Of a stretch of DNA of 14,574 nucleotides, positions 1 to 13,304 are shown piece by piece. This DNA is from a virus (Duplodnaviria > Heunggongvirae > Uroviricota > Caudoviricetes). The notes below the pieces were generated by a model. The model saw only the letters and a program-made list of their open reading frames with translations, did not search any database and had not been told where the DNA came from. The stretch is taken from the IMG/VR virus record IMGVR_UViG_2851955134_000008; one strand, given 5' to 3'. Position numbers and translations under genes: made by a program. Every line of letters starts with the position of its first letter. Position 1 is the first letter of the stretch.

Positions 1-1284
1 TTACTTCTTCGCCTCTGCAACCACTTTACTACCCACGCCGCGGTTATTGTATTCCCACATGCGGTTGTAGTTAGTGTCATTCAGATTGCGCTGTATTTCG
101 TCGTTATCATCTACGCTGCCGGTATTACCCGCAAACGGACGATTAGAGATCACCGCATCGGCCCACGGTTTAGCCGTGTTAAAACCTTCGTTGATGGCGC
201 TATCACGGATCACCACCTGACCGTTGGTATTGGCATCAACATCCAGCGAGCGGCCCAGTTGCGCCACACCATCACCGAAAGCATTGAAACGGCTGTTTAC
301 GGCGAGGAAACCGTAGTAAATGTTGGACAGCGTAGCCGGTGCAAACACATACGCTTCTTGCTGAGTACGTGAGTTCACCACGCGGAATTCGGTGTTATCG
401 AACACCACTGCGCCGCGACCAGAAACGATATCCACATCCCCTTCAATGTAGCTGTTGGTCACCAGCGTACGCGGCTGACGATTCGTTTCCAGACGGTTCT
501 GCACACCGCTGTTGGTGACAAAGAAGGTGTTCTGACGACCGAGAATGTTAACGTTGTTAATCTGTACCTGGTCACCATCAGTACGCAGTGCCACCGCCGG
601 ATGGTTACCTGCATCTACGCTATCGCCCAGCGTGTTTTCGATGGTCAGATTTTGCAGTTGCAGGCCATTGTTTTGTGACCAGAAGACCGCAGAGCAGAGA
701 ACACCGATACTGTCGCTGCGTTTGCTCTGGCAGCTATCGTACATATACCACGCTGGTTTACCTGGCATATATTTGCCGCGCGGGTTGACGTCGTGACGCC
801 AGTCGGCAGGGCTCATGCCACCATCAAGGGAAAGCCCAATCTTCACATCAATCGGTTTTTCACCTGTACCGTACAGAGTAATTCCACCCGGAGCGGCAGG
901 GACATATACCGTTCCCTGATACTCACCAGGCATCACGGCAATATACTGGCGCTTGTTGGTACGCTTGATAATTGCCGCATCTACCGCCGCCTGAATCGTG
1001 GTATGCGTTACACCTTGAGTGCCCGCCGGGCCGACAACAAAGTCAGGTTGCGCAGGCAGGGTAATCGGGGAAGGATTCCACGCTGCAGCACCTGGTGTCA
1101 GGGATGCAAAATAGTGTTGAGCATCGAAATTCTGCGCTTCTTTTGCCGACAGAATCGGGCGAGAAGAGGTACCAGGCGCGGTTTGATCAGAAGGACGTTG
1201 ATCGGGCGGGGTTGAGCTACAGGCGGTCAGCGTCACGCCAAAAGCCAATGCCAGCGCCAGACGGGAAACTGAAAATGTGTTCAC
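1..1284 (-). CDS. ybhC: YbhC-type outer-membrane lipoprotein (pectinesterase-like / acyl-CoA thioesterase family), chromosomal gene flanking attB-lambda
   Basis: Complete 427-aa ORF with a lipoprotein signal (LTACSS lipobox). It matches my recollection of E. coli YbhC and sits where ybhC lies beside the lambda attachment site. GC content is host-like. Confidence 0.85.
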   Translation of the reverse strand: MNTFSVSRLALALAFGVTLTACSSTPPDQRPSDQTAPGTSSRPILSAKEAQNFDAQHYFASLTPGAAAWNPSPITLPAQPDFVVGPAGTQGVTHTTIQAAVDAAIIKRTNKRQYIAVMPGEYQGTVYVPAAPGGITLYGTGEKPIDVKIGLSLDGGMSPADWRHDVNPRGKYMPGKPAWYMYDSCQSKRSDSIGVLCSAVFWSQNNGLQLQNLTIENTLGDSVDAGNHPAVALRTDGDQVQINNVNILGRQNTFFVTNSGVQNRLETNRQPRTLVTNSYIEGDVDIVSGRGAVVFDNTEFRVVNSRTQQEAYVFAPATLSNIYYGFLAVNSRFNAFGDGVAQLGRSLDVDANTNGQVVIRDSAINEGFNTAKPWADAVISNRPFAGNTGSVDDNDEIQRNLNDTNYNRMWEYNNRGVGSKVVAEAKK

Positions 1285-1315: not shown

Positions 1316-1420
1316 AATCCGTTGAAGCCTGCTTTTTTATACTAAGTTGGCATTATAAAAAAGCATTGCTTATCAATTTGTTGCAACGAACAGGTCACTA
1401 TCAGTCAAAATAAAATCATT
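1316..1420. other. attL: attL (B-O-P' junction) of a lambda-type integration; 15-bp core GCTTTTTTATACTAA at 1331..1345
   Basis: The exact lambda att core is read directly. To its left is GTTGAAGCCT, the attB bacterial arm as I recall it. To its right is GTTGGCATTATAAAAAAGCATTGCTTATCAATTTGTTGCAACGAACAGGTCACTATCAGTCAAAATAAAATCATTATTTGATTTC, which I recall as the lambda P' arm leading into the int 3' end. Confidence 0.85.
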
Positions 1421-1685
1421 ATTTGATTTCAATTTTGTCCCACTCCCTGCCTCTGTCATCACGATACTGTGATGCCATGGTGTCCGACTTATGCCCGAGA
1501 AGATGTTGAGCAAACTTATCGCTTATCTGCTTCTCATAGAGTCTTGCAGACAAACTGCGCAACTCGTGAAAGGTAGGCGGATCCCCTTCGAAGGAAAGAC
1601 CTGATGCTTTTCGTGCGCGCATAAAATACCTTGATACTGTGCCGGATGAAAGCGGTTCGCGACGAGTAGATGCAATTATGGTTTC
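1419..1685 (-). pseudogene. int: Integrase remnant (3' third of lambda-type int, lacks N-terminal arm-binding and core-binding domains and part of the catalytic domain)
   Basis: Only the Int C-terminal segment up to the stop is present. It still includes the region around the catalytic tyrosine (LSARLYEKQ) and an intact internal GGATCC at 1579..1584. No xis ORF is present. Confidence 0.8.
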
Positions 1686-2057
1686 AACCATGTACCGGAT
1701 GTGTTCTGCCATGCGCTCCTGAAACTCAACATCGTCATCAAACGCACGGGTAATGGCTTTTTTGCTGGCCCCGTGGCGTTGTAAATGATCGATGCAGAGT
1801 GATTCAAACAGGTGCTGGGGCAGACCTTTTTCCATGTCGTCTGCCAGTTCTGCCTCTTTCTCTTCACGGGCGATCTGCTGGTAGTGACGCGTCCAGCTCT
1901 GAGCCTCAAGACGATCCTGAATGTAATAAGCGTTCATGGCTGAACTCCTGAAATAGCTGTGAAAATATCGCCCGCGAAATGCCGGGCTGATTAGGAAAAC
2001 AGGAAAGGAGGTTAGTGAATGCTTTTGCTTGATCTCAGTTTCAGTATTAATATCCAT
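1419..2057 (-). CDS. gam: In-frame chimeric ORF: lambda Gam (GamL start 2057, GamS start 1937; first ~124-127 codons) fused to the C-terminal ~85-88 codons of lambda integrase
   Basis: The N-terminal part ([15 protein letters not shown]...[15 protein letters not shown]...EHIRYMV) matches recalled lambda Gam. The C-terminal part ([21 protein letters not shown]...REWDKIEIK) matches the recalled lambda Int C-terminus. A good RBS (CAGGAG) precedes the GamS ATG. Confidence 0.85.
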
Positions 2058-4172: not shown

Positions 4173-4823
4173 TTATGGAAGGTTTGCTATTTTTGCATCG
4201 ACAACTACACCGATGATTTTGCAGTTCCCGTTGATCTCAATCATCGGATATTGTGGGTTAAGTGGTTTTAGAAACCTTCTGCCAGCATCAATAACTAACT
4301 TCTTGAAAGTTGCCTCGTTTTCTCCTTCGAGCTTTGCCACTACCAGCTTCCCATTACGAGGTTCTACTTCAGGATCGACTAGTATTATCATCCCTTCCGG
4401 GATGCTAAGACCGGCTGGAGCCGTCATCGAATCACCCTTTACGTCCAGCCAAAACGAATCTTCTGAACAATCTACGGTTGTATCGTACCAGTTATCTATT
4501 GCACGCTTATGATATGGCTCTACAGCTTCCATCCAACATCCTGCGCTTACCCAACTAATTAGAGGATACGAACCTCTTGGATCATGCCTGCTGTGATAGG
4601 CAATGTTTGAAAGACTATCTTCTCCTTTCAACAAGTAATCAGGGGAGCACTGTAAAGCCTTGGCTAAAGCCAATAGGTTTTCGCCATTGGGCTCAGTTTC
4701 AGAACGCTCCCATTGGGAAATAGCAACATTAGACACGCCAACCATCTTGCCAAGGGCAGCCTGCCTAATCTTAAGTTCTTTTCTGCGAGCGCGAATACGC
4801 TCACCCATCAGTTGTGTATTCAT
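4173..4823 (-). CDS. cI: Prophage repressor, P22 C2-type (N-terminal HTH, C-terminal LexA-like S24 autopeptidase domain)
   Basis: 216-aa ORF, near-identical over its length to my recollection of P22 C2 (MNTQLMGERIRARRK.LKIRQAALGKMVGVSNVAISQWERSETEPNGENLLAL...). The Ser/Lys dyad context (GDSM ... K) is present. Confidence 0.9.
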   Translation of the reverse strand: MNTQLMGERIRARRKELKIRQAALGKMVGVSNVAISQWERSETEPNGENLLALAKALQCSPDYLLKGEDSLSNIAYHSRHDPRGSYPLISWVSAGCWMEAVEPYHKRAIDNWYDTTVDCSEDSFWLDVKGDSMTAPAGLSIPEGMIILVDPEVEPRNGKLVVAKLEGENEATFKKLVIDAGRRFLKPLNPQYPMIEINGNCKIIGVVVDAKIANLP

Positions 4824-4889
4824 AGTTAAGACATCTTAAATAAACTTGACTTAAGATTCCTTTGATAGATAATTTAAGTGTTCTTTAAT
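4824..4889. promoter_or_regulatory. OR3-OR2-OR1 operators (4824..4841, 4849..4866, 4872..4889) with pR (-35 TTGACT 4846..4851, -10 GATAAT 4868..4873) and divergent pRM
   Basis: Three 18-bp sites fit NNNNAAGNNNNCTTNNNN, with 7- and 5-bp spacers. OR1 ATTTAAGTGTTCTTTAAT matches the recalled P22 OR1. The region lies between the divergent cI and cro starts. Confidence 0.75.
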
Positions 4890-4903
4890 TTCGGAGCGAG
4901 TCT

Positions 4904-5023
4904 ATGTACAAGAAAGATGTTATCGACCACTTCGGAACCCAGCGTGCGGTACCGAATACTGAAGAATTACGCCAAAACACTGACAGGAGCAGGAGTATGA
5001 AGTCAGAGATAACAATCAACTAA
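4904..5023 (+). pseudogene. cro: cro remnant: first 16 codons of a P22-type cro, then unrelated sequence to a stop (39 codons)
   Basis: MYKKDVIDHFGTQRAV matches the recalled P22 Cro N-terminus. The next 23 codons (PNTEELRQNTDRSRSMKSEITIN) do not, and the ORF is too short for a Cro fold. Confidence 0.7.
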
Positions 5024-5085
5024 TACTGTTTTGTTGATTTTTGCTTGTAATTGGCGTTCTGGTCTGAGTTTTGTGGAGTAAGTTG

Positions 5086-5463
5086 ATGCGTGATATTCAG
5101 ATGGTTCTTGAGCGTTGGGGAGCGTGGGCGGCTAATAATCATGAAGATGTGACCTGGTCGTCCATTGCCGCCGGTTTTAAGGGATTAATTCCTTCAAAAG
5201 TAAAATCTCGCCCACAATGTTGTGACGATGACGCGATGATCATTTGCGGGTGCATGGCCCGTCTGAAAAAGAACAACAGCGATTTGCATGATTTATTGGT
5301 GGACTATTATGTCGGCGGCATGACTTTTATGGCGCTTGCACGTAAGCATGGGCGATCTGATTGTTGGGTTGGCAGGATGCTTCAGAAAGCTGAGGGCGTA
5401 GTGGAGGGTATGCTGATGGTGTTGGATCTCCGATTGGAGATGGATGCTGATTGTTCGAAATAA
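5086..5463 (+). CDS. Q: Late-gene antiterminator Q, phage-21 / DLP12 QuuD / P22 gp23 type
   Basis: [37 protein letters not shown]... matches the recalled QuuD/gp23 family. GGAG lies 7 nt upstream of ATG 5086. It is followed by a short leader and tR'. Confidence 0.85.
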
Positions 5464-5562
5464 TTAAAGGAAAAGTTGCTGTCTGATTGTCATTAGTCTA
5501 ACATTTTAAATGTTGGAATCGCAACGTAGTTATTATCATATAACAGCTTGTTTCCTGATTTA

Positions 5563-5590
5563 GCCAGCCTCCCCAAAGGCTGGTCTTTTT
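5563..5590 (+). terminator. tR'-like rho-independent terminator of the short late leader transcript (Q-antiterminated)
   Basis: CCAGCC-TCCCCAAA-GGCTGG hairpin followed by TCTTTTTCT, about 100 nt after the Q stop. The late promoter pR' and qut site are expected in 5464..5562 but are not resolved. Confidence 0.6.
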
Positions 5591-5618
5591 CTAATAAGTA
5601 TTATTTCGGGTAGGGATT

Positions 5619-6143
5619 TTATTGTTTAACCCATAATAATTCATTGACATTGAATCCCAACTTTTGAGCGGTTCGCACATAGTCTGCTTTTACTTTATCT
5701 GGAATAGTTGGGGTCCTTGCCAGAATCCATAGGTATTCTCTGTTCGGACCACTGACAAGAGCATACTTATACTCATCATCCAGTTTGATTACATTATAGC
5801 CACCATAGAAGGGGCCAAAAAACGAAACCTTCAATGCTGCAGTTTTAGTATCTCCAGTAAAGTATGCTTTACCTTCGCTCTCGCTCCATTTATTTTTCGT
5901 TGGATCGTATCCACGGTTAAGTACACGAATCCCTCCGTCGTTCCGTTTTCCATAAGTAGCGCTGACCTGTTCCAGACCACGTTCGAACCGGTTCTCGAGG
6001 CGAGCTATTTCATACCATTTTCCGAGGTAGCGGTTGGCGTCAAAATTTGTAATCGGCTGCACACCTTTAGGTGGTGTCGGGGCCTTACATGCTATAAGAG
6101 TGAAAGAGAGTGCAATGCCAGTCAACACAGGCCATAACTTCAT
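5619..6143 (-). CDS. Blc-like bacterial lipocalin, outer-membrane lipoprotein
   Basis: 174-aa ORF with a lipoprotein signal (LIAC lipobox). It resembles recalled E. coli Blc throughout (NFDANRYLGKWYEIARLENRFERGLEQVSATY ... KVSFFGPFYGGYNVI ... YLWILARTPT). Confidence 0.85.
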   Translation of the reverse strand: MKLWPVLTGIALSFTLIACKAPTPPKGVQPITNFDANRYLGKWYEIARLENRFERGLEQVSATYGKRNDGGIRVLNRGYDPTKNKWSESEGKAYFTGDTKTAALKVSFFGPFYGGYNVIKLDDEYKYALVSGPNREYLWILARTPTIPDKVKADYVRTAQKLGFNVNELLWVKQ

Positions 6144-6335
6144 AATAAATCCTGTACTTTTGATAGTTGAGAGTAAGTATGAAAGATAGATGATTACGAC
6201 CGATCACTTAAAGAACTTTCATACTATATTAGGAATAGTCCATAACAGAAAAATTGTCAGTGATGACGCCAGAAAGGCAATTTATTCCGTGCACTACACA
6301 GTTTATGTGTTAATGAATTAGTCAAGGGGGAGAAT

Positions 6336-7295
6336 ATGATAAAAAAACCTGTGATTGGAATCAGCGGTTGTTTGGCCGGTTCTGCTGTTCGTTTTGATGG
6401 TGGTCACAAAAGAGCTGACTTTTTAATGGACAAATTAGTGGAATGGGTAACATTCAGACCAGTATGTCCGGAAATGGCTATAGGGCTGCCAGTTCCGCGT
6501 CCTGCTCTACGTCTTGTGCGCTCGATGCAAGGAAATATACGGATGTGTTTCAGCCACGACCAGAATGAGGATGTGACAGAGAGAATGACAGAGTTTAGTC
6601 GTTCTTATATGGACAAATTAAAGGATGTATCGGGGTTTGTGGTTTGTGCTAAATCTCCCAGCTGTGGCATGGAGCGCGTGCGTGTCTATGATGAAAATGG
6701 TAATCGAGGTCGTAAAGATGGAGTGGGACTATTTACGAGCACTTTGATGGAAAAGTTTTCCTGGCTACCGGTTGAAGAGGATGGGCGATTACATGATCCA
6801 GTGCTTCGTGAGAATTTTGTTGAAAGAGTTTTTGCTTTGCATGAGCTCAATCACCTTTACAAGGAGAAATTATCAAGAAGAGAGTTATTAGCTTTTCATA
6901 GTCGTTATAAGCTTCAGTTGTTGGCGCATAGTCAGGCAGGCTATAAAGATATGGGACCATTTGTGGCTGCAATACACGAGTGGGCGGACCTTGAATCATA
7001 CTTTGAGGTGTATCGTGATAAGCTGATGGCGATTCTCAGAAAACCTGCATCACGTAAAAATCACACGAATGTGCTGATGCATATACAGGGGTATTTTAGT
7101 AACTACTTAAGTACACGCCAGCGTAAAGAGTTGAGCGAGGTTATACTTAACTATCGTTCTGGCACATTACCTCTTCTTGCGCCGTTGACTCTGCTGAAGC
7201 ATTATCTGGGTGAGTATCCTAATGATTACTTGCTTACACAGAATTACTTCGATCCCTATCCGGACGAACTGGCTCTAAGACTGATGGTAAATTAA
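6336..7295 (+). CDS. DUF523 (TudS-like, putative Fe-S thiouracil desulfidase fold) fused to a DUF1722 (YbgA-like) domain
   Basis: 319-aa ORF with a GGGGG-like RBS (AAGGGGGAG) upstream. The N-terminal third has three cysteines (C12, C44, C105) spaced as in the TudS family as I recall it. The family assignment is from memory and needs an HMM search. Confidence 0.55.
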   Translation: MIKKPVIGISGCLAGSAVRFDGGHKRADFLMDKLVEWVTFRPVCPEMAIGLPVPRPALRLVRSMQGNIRMCFSHDQNEDVTERMTEFSRSYMDKLKDVSGFVVCAKSPSCGMERVRVYDENGNRGRKDGVGLFTSTLMEKFSWLPVEEDGRLHDPVLRENFVERVFALHELNHLYKEKLSRRELLAFHSRYKLQLLAHSQAGYKDMGPFVAAIHEWADLESYFEVYRDKLMAILRKPASRKNHTNVLMHIQGYFSNYLSTRQRKELSEVILNYRSGTLPLLAPLTLLKHYLGEYPNDYLLTQNYFDPYPDELALRLMVN

Positions 7296-7646
7296 TTGTA
7301 TGCGATATCATCCAAAAGGATGAGTTCCTGCATGCAGGATATTTACAATCGTAAAAACTACACTATGATACCCAGAGTGTCAGTTTGTATAAAAACTCTG
7401 TTTACGCTGAAGAAACAATTGAGATGCAACTTAAAGTTGGTAAACATGCCAGTCAAAATATATAATATTATGATTCCACGCAGCTATATATAATATAACA
7501 GATTGGTTTAATAATTTGTCTTTGTGAGTTAAATACATAATTTTATACTTGTGATGCAATGAAATTTTCCTTATTGTTGAACTGGCGAATATTGATTTTC
7601 CACCTATACTTACCTGGTGTAACCCCAATGATATCAGGTGGATAAT

Positions 7647-8378
7647 ATGCCATACATATGTTCTATCATTTTGGTGTTGAACTCGTTTGATGTCCGAATT
7701 GGTAAAGAAGATATTTTGTTTAAAAAAGGAAGTGCTGTTCTCATTGATTACAATTTAAAAGATTTTTTTTCATCAAATATAGATCATGTAATGATCGTAG
7801 ATGTTGAAGAGAAAACAGTTAATGATTTCTTTAAAAGCAACACACTCTCACCTTTTTCTGTAAGAAGGTTTTATCCGGCATACTTGATGGTGGAATGTGA
7901 AGATTTTTCATTGTTAAAGAACTTGATTGCATGCTTGAATTGTGATGGCAGAACTGTGGATTTTGTTAGAAATCAAATATCACTTGCATGTCTTGCTATC
8001 TTATCTTCAGAGAAAATAGTGCAAAGTTTTTTATTTGGATGTCTTAATAGTTTAGGAAGTAAAGTTAAGGCTATTATTCACACGGATATATCTGCAGCAT
8101 GGAGACTTTGTGATATATCTTCAAGACTGTATCTGAGTGAAAGTCTGTTAAAAAGAAAATTAAAGCACGAAGGCTTATCATTTAGTAAGTTAATTCTTGA
8201 AGAGCGAATGGTGATGGCGGAAAGGTTATTAAGCTACAATTTATATTCTGTTGGAAAAGTTGCTGAGATATGCGGTTATGAAAACACGTCATATTTTGTA
8301 AGTGTTTTCAGAAGGTATTTTGGTGTTCCTCCCCATCAATATTCATCAAGATTTTTTTTAGAAAAAGACATGATGTAA
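7647..8378 (+). CDS. AraC/XylS-family transcriptional regulator (AppY/EnvY/GadX-like), in an AT-rich island
   Basis: C-terminal 100 aa carry the two-HTH AraC signature (..LSFSKLILEERMVMAERLL..VGKVAEICGYENTSYFVSVFRRYFGVPPHQY). AGGTGG lies 7 nt upstream of ATG 7647. An alternative GTG start is at 7638. Confidence 0.8.
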   Translation: MPYICSIILVLNSFDVRIGKEDILFKKGSAVLIDYNLKDFFSSNIDHVMIVDVEEKTVNDFFKSNTLSPFSVRRFYPAYLMVECEDFSLLKNLIACLNCDGRTVDFVRNQISLACLAILSSEKIVQSFLFGCLNSLGSKVKAIIHTDISAAWRLCDISSRLYLSESLLKRKLKHEGLSFSKLILEERMVMAERLLSYNLYSVGKVAEICGYENTSYFVSVFRRYFGVPPHQYSSRFFLEKDMM

Positions 8379-8439
8379 CGTGATGCGTTTTAATGATTTT
8401 GTAATTTTCGTATTTGATAATTGTATGATGCTTTCAGCT

Positions 8440-8470
8440 ACGCCAGAATAATCGCGGCGTTTTTCTTTTT
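8440..8470 (+). terminator. Putative rho-independent terminator downstream of the AraC-family gene
   Basis: ACGCC-N11-GGCGT hairpin followed by TTTTTCTTTTT. Confidence 0.45.
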
Positions 8471-8565
8471 GAATAGATGTTCAAGCCTTACGCTAATGTA
8501 ACTTCTATACCTTTCCTCTTCGTTCCGAACCGTGTACACCATCCGTTATTTGCGGAGGTGAGGCT

Positions 8566-8781
8566 ATGAAATCCATGGATAAGTTAACAACGGGTGTCGC
8601 CTATGGCACCTCAGCAGGTAGTGCCGGTTACTGGTTTTTACAGCTGCTCGATAAAGTCACGCCCTCACAGTGGGCAGCAATAGGTGTGCTGGGTAGCCTG
8701 GTATTTGGCCTGCTGACGTACCTGACAAACCTTTATTTCAAGATTAAAGAAGATAAGCGCAAGGCTGCGAGAGGTGAATAA
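8566..8781 (+). CDS. S: Pinholin, phage-21 S21 type, with dual starts (MKSMDK: antiholin from 8566, holin from 8575)
   Basis: 71-aa ORF matching recalled S21/EssD (..[43 protein letters not shown]). Two transmembrane segments. It lies immediately upstream of the endolysin. Confidence 0.9.
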
Positions 8782-9278
8782 TGCCTCCATCATTACGAAA
8801 AGCCGTTGCTGCTGCTATTGGTGGCGGAGCAATTGCTATAGCATCAGTGTTAATCACTGGCCCAAGTGGTAACGATGGTCTGGAAGGTGTCAGCTACATA
8901 CCATACAAAGATATCGTTGGCGTATGGACTGTATGTCACGGGCATACAGGAAAAGACATCATTCCCGGTAAAACGTATACCGAAGCAGAATGCAAAGCCC
9001 TCCTGAATAAAGACCTTGCCACGGTAGCCAGACAAATTAACCCGTACATCAAAGTCGATATACCGGAAACAACGCGCGGCGCTCTTTACTCGTTCGTCTA
9101 TAACGTGGGCGCAGGCAATTTCAGAACATCTACTCTTCTTCGCAAAATAAACCAGGGCGATATCAGGGGCGCATGTGACCAGCTACGTCGCTGGGCATAC
9201 GCTGGCGGTAAGCAATGGAAAGGCCTGATGACTCGTCGTGAGATTGAGCGTGAGGTCTGTTTGTGGGGGCAACAATGA
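8781..9278 (+). CDS. R: SAR endolysin (signal-anchor-release lysozyme), R21 type
   Basis: 165-aa ORF with an N-terminal glycine/alanine-rich SAR segment ([20 protein letters not shown]) followed by a lysozyme domain. Its start overlaps the S stop (TAATG). Confidence 0.9.
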
Positions 9279-9739: not shown

Positions 9740-9876
9740 AATCTTAACTACAATATGATTCATTTTGATGATTGTTTCATAAGGAACAGTGAAGTAAGAT
9801 CTAAGAGGAGTTAAATTTTATACAGTATAATCATAATATTGCAGCAAGGTGGTTATAATTGAAAGAATATTTAGAT

Positions 9877-11334
9877 ATGAATACATCTCATGTAAGAGTT
9901 GTTACTCATATGTGTGGGTTCCTGGTTTGGCTCTATAGTCTTTCAATGTTGCCACCAATGGTTGTAGCATTGTTTTATAAAGAAAAAAGCCTGTTCGTTT
10001 TCTTTATAACTTTCGTTATATTTTTTTGCATTGGTGGCGGAGCGTGGTATACAACTAAGAAATCTGGCATTCAATTACGTACCCGTGATGGGTTTATTAT
10101 AATTGTAATGTTTTGGATTTTGTTTTCTGTTATTAGTGCATTCCCTTTATGGATTGACTCAGAACTTAATTTAACGTTCATTGATGCTCTGTTTGAAGGG
10201 GTTTCTGGAATAACAACAACAGGAGCAACTGTAATTGATGATGTTAGTTCATTACCTCGGGCATATTTGTACTATCGGTCACAGTTAAATTTTATAGGTG
10301 GTTTAGGAGTTATTGTTCTGGCGGTTGCTGTATTGCCATTATTGGGTATTGGTGGTACAAAGCTTTATCAGTCAGAAATGCCGGGGCCATTTAAGGATGA
10401 CAAACTCACTCCCCGCCTGGCCGATACGTCACGGACACTGTGGATAACTTATTCTTTATTAGGTATTGCTTGTATTGTCTGTTATAGACTTGCAGGAATG
10501 CCTTTGTTTGATGCTATTTGTCACGGGATTTCCACAGTTTCGCTTGGTGGTTTCTCAACTCATAGCGAGAGTATCGGATATTTTAATAACTATTTGGTTG
10601 AGCTGGTGGCTGGTTCTTTTTCCCTGCTATCGGCTTTCAACTTCACTCTTTGGTATATTGTTATTAGCAGGAAAACGATAAAACCTTTAATCAGAGATAT
10701 TGAACTTCGTTTCTTTCTGTTAATAGCCTTAGGGGTGATCATTGTTACCTCTTTCCAGGTCTGGCATATAGGTATGTATGACTTGCATGGAAGTTTTATT
10801 CATTCGTTTTTTCTTGCCAGCTCCATGCTCACTGATAATGGTTTAGCTACGCAGGATTATGCAAACTGGCCCACGCACACGATAGTGTTTTTGCTGTCGT
10901 CAAGTTTCTTTGGGGGATGTATAGGTTCAACTTGTGGTGGAATTAAGTCACTTCGATTTCTTATACTTTTCAAACAAAGCAAACACGAGATAAATCAGCT
11001 TTCTCATCCCAGAGCGTTGTTGAGTGTAAATGTAGGAGGGAAGATAGTTACAGATCGTGTAATGAGGTCTGTATGGAGTTTCTTTTTTCTTTATACTCTC
11101 TTCACGGTGTTTTTTATACTGGTGTTAAATGGTATGGGATATGATTTTCTTACATCATTTGCAACAGTGGCTGCATGTATTAATAATATGGGATTAGGTT
11201 TTGGGGCTACTGCATCGTCATTCGGAGTGCTTAATGACATTGCAAAATATTTAATGTGCATAGCTATGATTCTTGGTCGCCTTGAAATTTATCCTGTTAT
11301 TATATTGTTTTCAGGTTTTTTTTGGCGCTCCTAA
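9877..11334 (+). CDS. trkG: TrkG/TrkH-family potassium uptake transporter (prophage-borne, as trkG in the Rac prophage)
   Basis: 485-aa polytopic membrane ORF matching recalled E. coli TrkG from MNTSHVRVVTHMCGFLVWLYSL onward. The region is AT-rich. An alternative in-frame TTG lies at 9859. Confidence 0.9.
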   Translation: MNTSHVRVVTHMCGFLVWLYSLSMLPPMVVALFYKEKSLFVFFITFVIFFCIGGGAWYTTKKSGIQLRTRDGFIIIVMFWILFSVISAFPLWIDSELNLTFIDALFEGVSGITTTGATVIDDVSSLPRAYLYYRSQLNFIGGLGVIVLAVAVLPLLGIGGTKLYQSEMPGPFKDDKLTPRLADTSRTLWITYSLLGIACIVCYRLAGMPLFDAICHGISTVSLGGFSTHSESIGYFNNYLVELVAGSFSLLSAFNFTLWYIVISRKTIKPLIRDIELRFFLLIALGVIIVTSFQVWHIGMYDLHGSFIHSFFLASSMLTDNGLATQDYANWPTHTIVFLLSSSFFGGCIGSTCGGIKSLRFLILFKQSKHEINQLSHPRALLSVNVGGKIVTDRVMRSVWSFFFLYTLFTVFFILVLNGMGYDFLTSFATVAACINNMGLGFGATASSFGVLNDIAKYLMCIAMILGRLEIYPVIILFSGFFWRS

Positions 11335-11420
11335 TATATGGCTGATTTATAATTGTGAGTTTAATATTATATTGACTCACTCATTGATCCAATACCTAAC
11401 TTTACCAGCAACACCTCCGC

Positions 11421-11455
11421 CCCCAGTAGCACTGGCTGCTGGGGTGCGTTTTATT
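11421..11455 (+). terminator. Putative rho-independent terminator after trkG
   Basis: CCCCAG..CTGGGG stem (with internal AGC/GCT pairing) followed by TGCGTTTTATTC. Confidence 0.4.
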
Positions 11456-11471
11456 CATAAAGCAAGGCTGT

Positions 11472-13304
11472 ATGAGCGAGAAATTAAAGATAGTCTATCG
11501 CCCATTACAAGAATTGTCACCGTATGCGCACAACGCCAGGACGCACAGTACTGAGCAGGTGGCACAACTGGTAGAAAGTATTAAGCAATTCGGCTGGACT
11601 AATCCGGTGCTGATTGACGAAAAGGGCGAAATTATTGCGGGTCACGGTCGTGTTATGGCGGCTGAAATGCTCAAAATGGATTCTGTTCCGGTCATTGTTC
11701 TGTCTGGCCTGACGGATGAGCAGAAAAAGGCGTACCGCCTGGCAGATAATCGCCTACCGATGAATGCTGGCTGGGATGAAGATCTGTTGCGGATGGAGCT
11801 GTCGGACCTAATCAATGCTGATTTTGATGTCTCCCTGACAGGCTTCGGCCCGACACAAATTGATGAACTGTTGACGGATGTTTTGCCCGGTACAGGAAAT
11901 AAGGAGGAGGGGAATACCAATATATCCGGCGTCACGGTGGTGTTCCGGGCCGGTGAGCAGGAGCAGACACCGCCGGAGGGATTTGAATCCTCCGGCTCCG
12001 AGACGGTGCTCGGTACAGAAGTGAAATATGACACGCCGATCACCCGGACCATCACGTCGGCAAACATTGACCGTCTGCGTTTTACTTTCGGCGTGCAGGC
12101 ACTGGTGGAAACCACCTCAAAGGGGGACAGGAATCCATCGGAAGTCCGCCTGCTGGTTCAGATACAACGTAACGGTGGCTGGGTGACGGAAAAAGACATC
12201 ACCATTAAGGGTAAAACCACTTCACAGTATCTGGCCTCGGTGGTGGTGGATAACCTGCCGCCGCGCCCGTTCAGTATCCGGATGCGCAGGATGACGCCGG
12301 ACAGCACCACAGACCAGCTGCAGAACAAAACGCTCTGGTCGTCATACACCGAAATTATCGATGTGAAACAGTGCTACCCGAACACGGCACTGTTCGGCGT
12401 GCAGGTGGACTCGGAGCAGTTCGGCAGCCAGCAGGTGAGCCGTAATTATCATCTGCGCGGGCGTATTCTGCAGGTGCCGTCGAATTATAACCCGCAGACG
12501 CGGCAATACAGCGGTATCTGGGACGGAACGTTTAAACCGGCATACAGCAACAACATGGCCTGGTGTATGTGGGATATGCTGACCCATCCGCGCTACGGCA
12601 TGGGGAAACGTCTTGGTGCAGCGGATGTAGATAAATGGGCGCTGTATGTCATCGGCCAGTACTGCGACCAGTCGGTGCCGGACGGCTTTGGCGGCACGGA
12701 GCCGCGCATCACCTGTAATGCGTACCTGACCACACAGCGCAAGGCGTGGGATGTGCTCAGTGATTTCTGCTCGGCGATGCGCTGTATGCCGGTATGGAAC
12801 GGGCAGACGCTGACGTTCGTGCAGGACCGACCATCAGATAAGGTGTGGACCTATAACCGCAGTAATGTGGTGATGCCGGATGATGGCGCGCCGTTCCGCT
12901 ACAGCTTCAGCGCCCTGAAGGACCGCCATAATGCCGTTGAGGTGAACTGGATTGACCCGAACAACGGCTGGGAGACGGCGACAGAGCTTGTTGAAGATAC
13001 GCAGGCCATTGCCCGTTACGGTCGTAACGTCACGAAGATGGATGCCTTTGGCTGTACCAGCCGGGGGCAGGCGCACCGCGCCGGGCTGTGGCTGATTAAA
13101 ACGGAACTGCTGGAAACGCAGACCGTGGACTTCAGCGTGGGTGCGGAAGGGCTTCGCCATGTACCGGGGGATGTCATTGAAATCTGCGATGATGACTATG
13201 CGGGTATCAGCATCGGCGGGCGTGTGCTGGCGGTGAACAGCCAGACCCGGACGCTGACGCTCGACCGTGAAATCACGCTGCCATCCTCCGGTAAATCCGT
13301 TTAA
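11472..13304 (+). CDS. J: In-frame chimera: ParB-like nuclease-domain protein N-terminus (~145 aa, YnaK-like) fused to an internal segment of lambda tail-tip protein J (to about J residue 530), then a stop 3 codons past the J homology
   Basis: Residues 1-145 carry a ParB/Srx-like motif ([11 protein letters not shown]). From [36 protein letters not shown] to REITLPSSG the sequence matches recalled lambda J. J's N-terminal ~65 residues and C-terminal ~600 residues, including the receptor-binding end, are absent. Confidence 0.85.

Follow-up and report, generated by a model that had tools for sequence, protein, structure and literature searches.

A conserved blc-rudS-regulator moron block between Q and the holin gene of lambda-like coliphages, with a probable role in stress tolerance

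Proteins that combine a TudS domain with DUF1722 have been named RudS and desulfurate 4-thiouridine (s4U) in tRNA (Jamontas et al., NAR 2024, PMC11417400). Over-expression of RudS in Escherichia coli lowered the s4U content 4.7- to 26-fold, and RudS_KT of Pseudomonas putida also reduced the growth delay induced by ultraviolet A (UVA) light (PMC11417400). Among the six proteins tested in that study was RudS_vir, the product gp66 of phage 1H12 carrying Cys12, Cys44 and Cys110. Its over-expression in E. coli reduced the s4U of tRNA, though by less than the amount of protein produced would lead one to expect, and with free 4-thiouracil it showed the shortest lag; the same paper states that E. coli has no RudS (PMC11417400). 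Among 19 infant-gut lambdas, more than 50% have been recorded to carry the lipocalin gene blc as a moron (PMC6969025), and the AraC-type regulators AppY, YdeO, PatE and PsrB all act on the gadE/AR2 acid-resistance circuit (PMC10057817, PMC10877973). Here we describe a block of three genes, encoding a lipocalin, a RudS-type protein and an AraC-type regulator, that lies between the antiterminator gene Q and the holin gene S of a lambda-like prophage in IMG/VR virus record IMGVR_UViG_2851955134_000008. The record is a stretch of 14,574 nucleotides, which as a whole is called the window below. The three open reading frames (ORFs) are intact, and their positions and strands, as given by the ORF analysis of the window, are the following, together with the genes that border the slot:

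5086..5463, plus strand: antiterminator Q of the DLP12 quuD type (Pfam PF06530, E = 2.5e-51), left border of the slot
5619..6143, minus strand: blc2, predicted outer-membrane lipocalin lipoprotein of 174 amino acids (Pfam Lipocalin_2 PF08212, E = 7e-44)
6336..7295, plus strand: rudS, TudS(DUF523)-DUF1722 fusion of 319 amino acids (Pfam PF04463, PF08349)
7647..8378, plus strand: AraC/XylS-type regulator of the AppY/YdeO/PatE group, 243 amino acids, 32% guanine plus cytosine (GC) (Pfam HTH_18, HTH_AraC)
8566..8781, plus strand: holin S of the phage 21 type with the dual start MKSM (Pfam PF04971, E = 2e-35), right border of the slot

We regard it as probable that these genes form a conserved and mobile moron block, resident in the Q-S slot of one lambda-like coliphage lineage, that brings about a stress-tolerance conversion of the host. 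The gene identities, their conservation, mobility and origin, and the polymorphism of the slot come from the analysis; promoter use, the targets of the regulator and the benefit to the host we infer. Every component is a member of a described family, and the block is known in kind and largely in detail. Our literature search yielded no paper on the three genes as a unit, none that tests the regulator, and none on what RudS does for the lysogen or the phage.

At least 80% of the 3.1-kb block is present in 991 of 5426 complete E. coli genomes (18%), in allele identity classes of at least 99%, about 94% and about 89%, and each exact protein occurs on at least 1000 contigs of E. coli, E. fergusonii and E. 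albertii. Among the E. coli genome matches the three genes are nearly always together; a few genomes keep blc and rudS only or rudS and the regulator gene only (matches H72-H74). The block was also detected in 12 phage records, namely 1H12, IdasGreatGrand and ten related Lambda_ records. In 1H12 and IdasGreatGrand the order is rusA, ylcG, Q, blc (opposite strand), rudS, regulator gene, S, R and Rz, and the proteins of the window share 97% (Blc), 93% (RudS) and 83% (regulator) identity with those of 1H12. E. coli HS carries the 94% allele in a Qin-site prophage, with a different lysozyme and spanin behind the holin, and the ybhC site holds the block both in the window and in strain 63-2 (L001). 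The block is found at no fewer than two prophage sites and in at least three allelic forms. Pairwise ratios of nonsynonymous to synonymous substitution rates (dN/dS) among the three allele groups were 0.06-0.12 for blc, 0.11-0.21 for rudS and 0.21-0.26 for the regulator gene, similar to those of Q and S, and the three cargo genes are under purifying selection. In PHROGs all three proteins fall into existing families labelled 'unknown function'. Two contigs labelled as a Candidatus Nanosynbacter metagenome-assembled genome (MAG), JARKOR010000151.1 (L057) and JARKOR010000135.1 (L062), carry the block at 94-100% protein identity; these are almost certainly contaminating sequences, of E. coli or phage origin, in the bin of a Saccharibacteria MAG.

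The borders of the block were drawn by comparison with other phages. The Q gene shares about 90% nucleotide identity with K-12 quuD as far as position 5445; homology with DLP12 of K-12 is lost there and regained at 8555, and comparison with the S regions of other phages places the right junction at about 8535. The variable block would therefore span about 5446-8535, the Q-proximal leader included. Base composition differs along this region, with 32% GC in the regulator gene, 43-44% in blc and rudS and 48-53% in Q, S, R and Rz. DLP12, 434B, ev243 and 4A7 have, in the space flanked by the same Q and S, a porin gene of the nmpC/ompD type that runs on the opposite strand. The block is a moron, situated between conserved phage genes and replaced by a porin gene in sister phages; it is of an ordinary kind for phages and did not arise as an artefact of deletion. 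Because it is under purifying selection, keeps the same gene order in isolated phages and occupies a polymorphic position, it is a maintained, exchangeable cargo unit in the classic moron slot.

A first-pass annotation, made from the letters of the window alone, had proposed a three-gene insert at 5600-8565 between Q/tR' and the holin gene, and all of its ORFs were recovered at the place and in the orientation that it gave. Its coordinates were essentially right, and the DLP12 and phage comparison moved the left border slightly outwards. The Blc-like lipocalin that it read on the opposite strand is assigned as such by Pfam and by an NCBIfam Blc model above its cut-off; the DUF523/DUF1722 fusion with a TudS-like three-cysteine pattern is confirmed by PF04463, PF08349 and the presence of Cys12, Cys44 and Cys110, the families to which the profile searches assign the middle gene; and the AraC-family regulator matches HTH_18 with E = 1e-14. 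The suggestion that this is a slot for lysogenic conversion agrees with the nmpC-type porin gene found at exactly this place in DLP12 and its sister phages and with the occurrence of the same genes in isolated phages. Since the block lies inside complete phage genomes, the reading that it is chromosomal DNA trapped by a deletion is excluded. The middle gene, for its part, is already characterised: its 1H12 orthologue, 93% identical, has been assayed (PMC11417400), and blc is a known lambda moron (PMC6969025).

In the protein encoded by the middle gene, PF04463 (2-thiour_desulf/DUF523) covers residues 7-149 (E = 4.5e-40) and PF08349 (DUF1722) residues 192-309 (E = 5.8e-41), the TudS alignment spanning C12 and the CPE motif. 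The identity of 93% with 1H12 gp66 (H3V29_gp66, RudS_vir) extends over all 319 residues, with 21 substitutions. The residues C12, C44, E46, R55, S107, S109 and C110 are present and match C17, C49, E51, R60, S111, S113 and C114 of RudS_KT at a constant offset; mutating any of these seven essentially abolished the activity of RudS_KT (PMC11417400). By these sequence features the middle gene of the window is identified as encoding RudS, predicted to be a [4Fe-4S] tRNA 4-thiouridine desulfidase. The absence of RudS from E. coli is true of K-12 and not of the 18% of genomes with the block, and the practical consequence is that the 991 of 5426 complete genomes with the rudS block correct the view of E. 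coli as a species without RudS. In BL21(DE3), a Qin-region prophage (NC_012971.2, 1588189-1589207) keeps blc and only the first approximately 150 nucleotides of rudS. BL21(DE3) was the host of the published RudS over-expression assays (PMC11417400).

The lipocalin scores 316 bits against the Blc subfamily model NF007786 of NCBIfam (cut-off 267) and matches the Blc structure 3mbt in the PDB with E = 3.5e-69; its identity with Blc of K-12 is only 60%. Blc is a lipid-binding lipocalin. The phage protein has the lipobox LIAC with Cys19 and a lysine, not an aspartate, at position +2. By the +2 rule, lipoproteins without aspartate at this position are sorted to the outer membrane, which implies that the phage Blc would be an outer-membrane lipoprotein.

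The start codon of the regulator gene is likely the ATG at 7647, as in RefSeq, rather than the GTG at 7638. Its product shares 54% identity over the full length with ECs_0287 of the Sakai strain and, in full-length alignments, 32% with AppY of DLP12 and 32% with YdeO; by the YdeO equivalog score given below it is a relative of YdeO and not YdeO itself. ECs_0287 is an AraC-type gene at the end of Sakai prophage Sp1, and patE (z0321) is located in O-island 8 (OI-8) (PMC10877973). Copies about 52% identical to the regulator lie between the tail-fibre genes and int of phages mEp332 and ev099, and the family is narrow and essentially restricted to Escherichia prophages. The AlphaFold2 model of the regulator has a mean confidence (pLDDT) of 79.6, and its best fold matches, over the full length, are CsvR, Rns and ToxT, with template-modelling (TM) scores of only 0.53-0.58 and identities of 17-20%. 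By analogy with its relatives, the target of the regulator is most likely the gadE/hdeAB acid-resistance circuit.

Chromosomal homologues of RudS, 66-76% identical, are present in Citrobacter, Enterobacter, Kluyvera, Leclercia, Klebsiella oxytoca and Pectobacterium, among others. A Blc homologue (77-82% identity) is encoded divergently upstream of rudS at most Enterobacter and Leclercia loci and at a few others, and the Enterobacter Blc homologues are not in phage contexts. In Enterobacter cloacae genes for an MlrA-like MerR regulator and a transthyretin-like protein lie between blc and rudS, and in Citrobacter sedlakii blc directly adjoins rudS, as in the phage. The intergenic regions of the phage and of C. 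sedlakii show no alignable similarity, and a common origin for them was rejected. The Salmonella RudS orthologue orf319 is repressed by MlrB and MlrA (bioRxiv 10.1101/2021.03.09.434593). A PatE-like gene is absent from the chromosomal blc-rudS loci compared, and because of this absence and of the GC contents (32% versus 43-44%) the regulator gene is assigned a separate origin. The block is thus a composite, consisting of a chromosomal blc-rudS pair minus its MerR regulator, plus an AT-rich regulator gene of other origin.

According to the reading that we prefer, the blc-rudS pair was taken from an enterobacterial chromosome and the regulator gene was added from a separate AT-rich source. RudS would turn s4U8/9 of the host tRNA back into uridine, and the regulator would plug into host stress regulons, most probably gadE/hdeAB acid resistance. 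Each cargo gene appears to have a promoter of its own, and tR' and a terminator preceding S may bracket the block in such a way that the lysogen expresses the cargo without the lysis genes. Once the prophage is induced, read-through by the Q-modified polymerase would yield sense transcripts of rudS and the regulator gene and an antisense transcript of blc. The host would gain the erasure of s4U, with less growth arrest under near-UV light, a second Blc and an extra acid-stress regulator; s4U erasure would be a gain because E. coli has no rudS of its own. Depending on a single prophage block, E. coli strains may contain different amounts of tRNA s4U, be delayed differently in growth by near-UV light and respond differently to disinfection by sunlight or UVA. 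The block would also add another prophage AraC regulator to those that rewire acid resistance.

The expression of the cargo in this scheme depends on the following control elements of the slot:

5464..5562, plus strand: Q-proximal leader expected to hold pR' and the Q-loading site (candidate promoters only)
5563..5592, plus strand: tR'-like intrinsic terminator, GCCAGCCTCCCCAAAGGCTGGT then CTTTTTCT
6144..6335, no strand assigned: divergent blc/rudS control region, 34% GC, with the dyad AAATTG-N21-CAATTT at 6251-6283
7296..7337, plus strand: stable hairpin directly 3' of the rudS stop codon (-19.3 kcal/mol, z = -3.9)
7342..7369, plus strand: sigma-70-like promoter TTTACA-N16-TATGAT (promoter scan, 10/12 matches)
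8440..8470, plus strand: intrinsic terminator between the regulator gene and S, weakened here by a 1-nucleotide deletion

When positions 4800-8800 were scanned for terminators, the sole prediction was 5563-5584, followed by the T run CTTTTTCT. This tR'-like terminator lies 100 nucleotides past the Q stop codon and 25 nucleotides short of the blc stop codon, folds with -14.2 kcal/mol (z = -3.0; 0 of 200 shuffles were as stable) and is kept in the HS and 1H12 alleles. The leader (5446-5625) was seen only alongside the block in the phage collection. Two candidate promoters in it were picked by eye, TTGCTG-17-TAACAT (5476-5504) and TTGGAA-18-CATATA (5513-5542). The short block ATATAACAG is common to the leaders of the window and of DLP12, and pR' could not be placed, as the alignment to the DLP12 leader yielded short common blocks only. 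The DLP12 leader of K-12 (L070, 3340-3530) contains a GC-rich hairpin, GGGGCGTTGAGACGCCCC, with a T run on the opposite strand, which has the appearance of a terminator serving the convergent nmpC side rather than of a tR'.

Downstream of rudS, even the divergent 1H12 allele keeps the block TTTACA-N16-TATGAT unchanged, in a spacer otherwise riddled with indels. This block is likely the promoter of the regulator gene, predicted from consensus and conservation, and implies a leader of about 275 nucleotides. The hairpin at 7296-7337 is not followed by a T run and its sequence is not kept in 1H12; it may be a transcript-end or stability element. A small ORF at 7296-7493 in the rudS-regulator spacer was rejected as non-coding, since it is not conserved and has indels of at least 54 nucleotides between alleles. 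In front of S, the alleles of 1H12, HS and IdasGreatGrand have ACGCCAG-AATAATCG-CTGGCGT, a stem of 7 bp, with T5CT5 behind it, and do not vary in these columns. The copy in the window has lost one T of the stem (ACGCC...GGCGT), which leaves a stem of 5 bp that folds no better than shuffles, and the element is intact even in the 99%-identical IdasGreatGrand. We propose a terminator at this position because the other alleles keep the canonical form; in the window allele, transcription of the regulator gene may leak into the lysis genes. An Rfam scan of 4800-9000 gave chance-level matches only.

The E. coli MlrA box has the form AAAATTGTACA-N12-TGTACAATTTT (PMC9662190), and the dyad at 6251-6283 resembles it, with a chance expectation of 0.05 per window and matches in 10 of 200 shuffles. 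An MlrA/MlrB operator before rudS, as in the case of Salmonella orf319, was kept as no more than a weak lead, the spacing being one off and the right arm mutated in 1H12. The dyad is also absent from the chromosomal blc-rudS loci.

Several points weigh against a stress-tolerance conversion. The promoters and terminators of the block are consensus matches or predictions only, and across the region promoter-like matches number 14, compared with 11.9 expected from shuffles. The regulator is only 32-54% identical to characterised relatives, reaches 127 bits in the YdeO equivalog model NF007407 (cut-off 348), and its targets are an extrapolation from those relatives; that ECs_0287 is PatE we infer from the Sp1/OI-8 position and not from a named record. 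RudS_vir was the weaker tRNA desulfidase among the well-expressed orthologues, and this on over-expression only (PMC11417400), and deletion of orf319 (RudS_ST) left the survival of Salmonella in macrophages unaffected (bioRxiv 10.1101/2021.03.09.434593). In addition, about one tenth of the listed copies have an insertion sequence (IS), namely IS1, IS2 or IS3, within the block, and in several cases it splits rudS, which implies that the block is not indispensable. The E. coli genome matches bearing an IS are H1, H13, H19, H22-H25, H43, H49, H60 and H65.

The alternative that survives best, which we nevertheless hold to be unlikely, is that the block serves the lytic cycle. [quoted passage not shown] The rudS and regulator genes do lie on the strand of the late transcript, between the leader with tR' and S; the terminators around the cargo are of the kind that a Q-modified polymerase should ignore; and leader and block always occur together in the phage collection. 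Moreover, it is through s4U that near-UV light sets off growth delay and the accumulation of guanosine tetraphosphate (ppGpp), and RudS_KT relieves this delay (PMC11417400). The first-pass annotation had likewise expected the three genes to be co-induced with lysis through Q, and this stands for rudS and the regulator gene by virtue of their strand; it does not for blc, because blc is antisense to the late transcript, which also speaks against a lytic function. Another point against it is that tRNA already cross-linked is beyond repair by RudS, so that the protein would have to act before irradiation. The conserved promoter block and the terminator around the regulator gene point to autonomous expression, purifying selection persists in defective prophages that make no virions, the window included, and sister phages thrive with a porin gene in the slot. 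A lytic role, if true, would make this the first example of a phage that removes a tRNA modification of its host to its own advantage, with the PatE-like regulator and Blc tuning host stress physiology at the same time.

Rather improbable, in our judgement, is a self-contained regulon in which the AraC-type protein has taken the place of the lost MlrA-like regulator and governs blc and rudS upon a lipid or fatty-acid signal that Blc helps to handle. Such an arrangement would suit the fact that chromosomal blc-rudS loci have a dedicated regulator, which the phage version lacks, as well as the near-constant co-occurrence of the three genes. The predicted fold of the regulator is closest to the fatty-acid-binding proteins Rns, CsvR and ToxT, and the lipocalin, by its PDB matches, is of the lipid-binding Blc type. 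However, no binding motif was found, the closest characterised relatives of the regulator act on host acid-resistance genes and not on neighbouring genes, the PatE-like homologues in mEp332 and ev099 sit alone without blc or rudS, and some genomes keep blc and rudS without the regulator gene or the reverse (H72-H74).

The last alternative, that the genes are chromosomal remnants left by flanking deletions or an anti-phage defence or superinfection-exclusion module, draws on the heavily deleted state of the window prophage (Gam-Int, cro'-'ylcG and ynaK-J fusions), on the chromosomal blc and rudS homologues of other genera and on the outer-membrane lipoproteins by which some phages block receptors, but it is highly improbable, given that the same block occupies the same position in complete genomes of isolated phages and at two prophage sites, that no E. 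coli core locus matches it (Blc of K-12 is 60% identical and YbgA of K-12 is the DUF1722 domain alone), that PADLOC has no family matching any of the three proteins at E ≤ 0.01, and that the Enterobacter Blc homologues lie outside phage contexts.

The remainder of the window is made up of ybhC at 1-1284 (minus strand) and, next to it, a strongly deleted lambda-like prophage. After ybhC come a Gam-Int fusion ORF, a sieB-like gene, an N-like gene, the repressor gene and Q, and after Q the three cargo genes, the holin gene, the lysozyme gene, Rz/Rz1, trkG and tail remnants; the order of lysozyme and then Rz/Rz1 follows the holin of the phage 21 type. Pfam confirms Q, holin, lysozyme, Rz, repressor and TrkH. 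In the Gam-Int ORF (1419-2057, minus strand) the N-terminal approximately 127 residues of lambda Gam are joined to the C-terminal approximately 85 residues of lambda Int; the deletion that left this scar removed bet, exo and xis. Within 4846-5086 the 3' end of ylcG has become joined, at about 4950, to the start of cro (4905) with a pR-like promoter, TTGACT-16-GATAAT; the cII-O-P-nin region is missing entirely, which places Q about 200 nucleotides from pR and under the S24-type repressor. The S24-type repressor gene (4173-4823) is intact, and S, R, Rz and Rz1 look intact. In this remnant the SOS response could still switch on Q, the cargo and lysis directly. Rz is followed by trkG (window 9859-13304), an arrangement also seen in the Rac prophage. 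The ORF at 11472-13304 fuses a ynaK/ParB-like N-terminus to a C-terminus like that of the tail-tip protein J, and from this fusion we conclude that the head and tail genes were deleted.

Compared with described systems, the middle gene is closest to that of 1H12. RudS_vir and the window RudS have the same length, TudS plus DUF1722 architecture, three cysteines, catalytic Glu, Arg, Ser and Ser, neighbouring genes and Q-S position; the window rudS is a different allele from that of 1H12 and lies in a defective prophage. The work on RudS_vir did not take up the phage context or the neighbouring genes (PMC11417400). The chromosomal blc-rudS loci and the Salmonella mlrB(orf242)-orf319 locus in Salmonella pathogenicity island 2 (SPI-2) have an MlrA-like MerR regulator and often a transthyretin-like gene, whereas the phage block lacks both, includes a downstream gene of the AraC type and has intergenic sequence unrelated to that of the chromosomal loci. 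The phage Blc shares its fold family, length and lipoprotein signal with E. coli Blc (b4149), which is encoded beside ampC, yet the second Blc of Enterobacter and Citrobacter resembles it more than E. coli Blc does. Its gene is phage-borne and divergent from rudS, whereas E. coli blc follows ampC.

The regulator resembles the prophage-type AraC activators PatE and PsrA/PsrB of enterohaemorrhagic E. coli (EHEC) prophages, AppY and YdeO, which are likewise encoded by AT-rich genes, about 245 amino acids long and equipped with a C-terminal double helix-turn-helix. It is not orthologous to any of them, and it lies in the Q-S slot, whereas the PatE-like copies (ECs_0287, mEp332, ev099) are found beyond the tail-fibre genes. 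As a moron, the block is most similar to the nmpC porin morons of DLP12, 434B, ev243 and 4A7, with which it shares the slot and the rusA-ylcG-Q / S-R-Rz backbone, and its first cargo gene lies on the opposite strand, like nmpC. It differs from the nmpC cargo, and from the stx cargo of Stx phages, in that it consists of three genes, includes neither a porin nor a toxin, and has a different Q-proximal leader.

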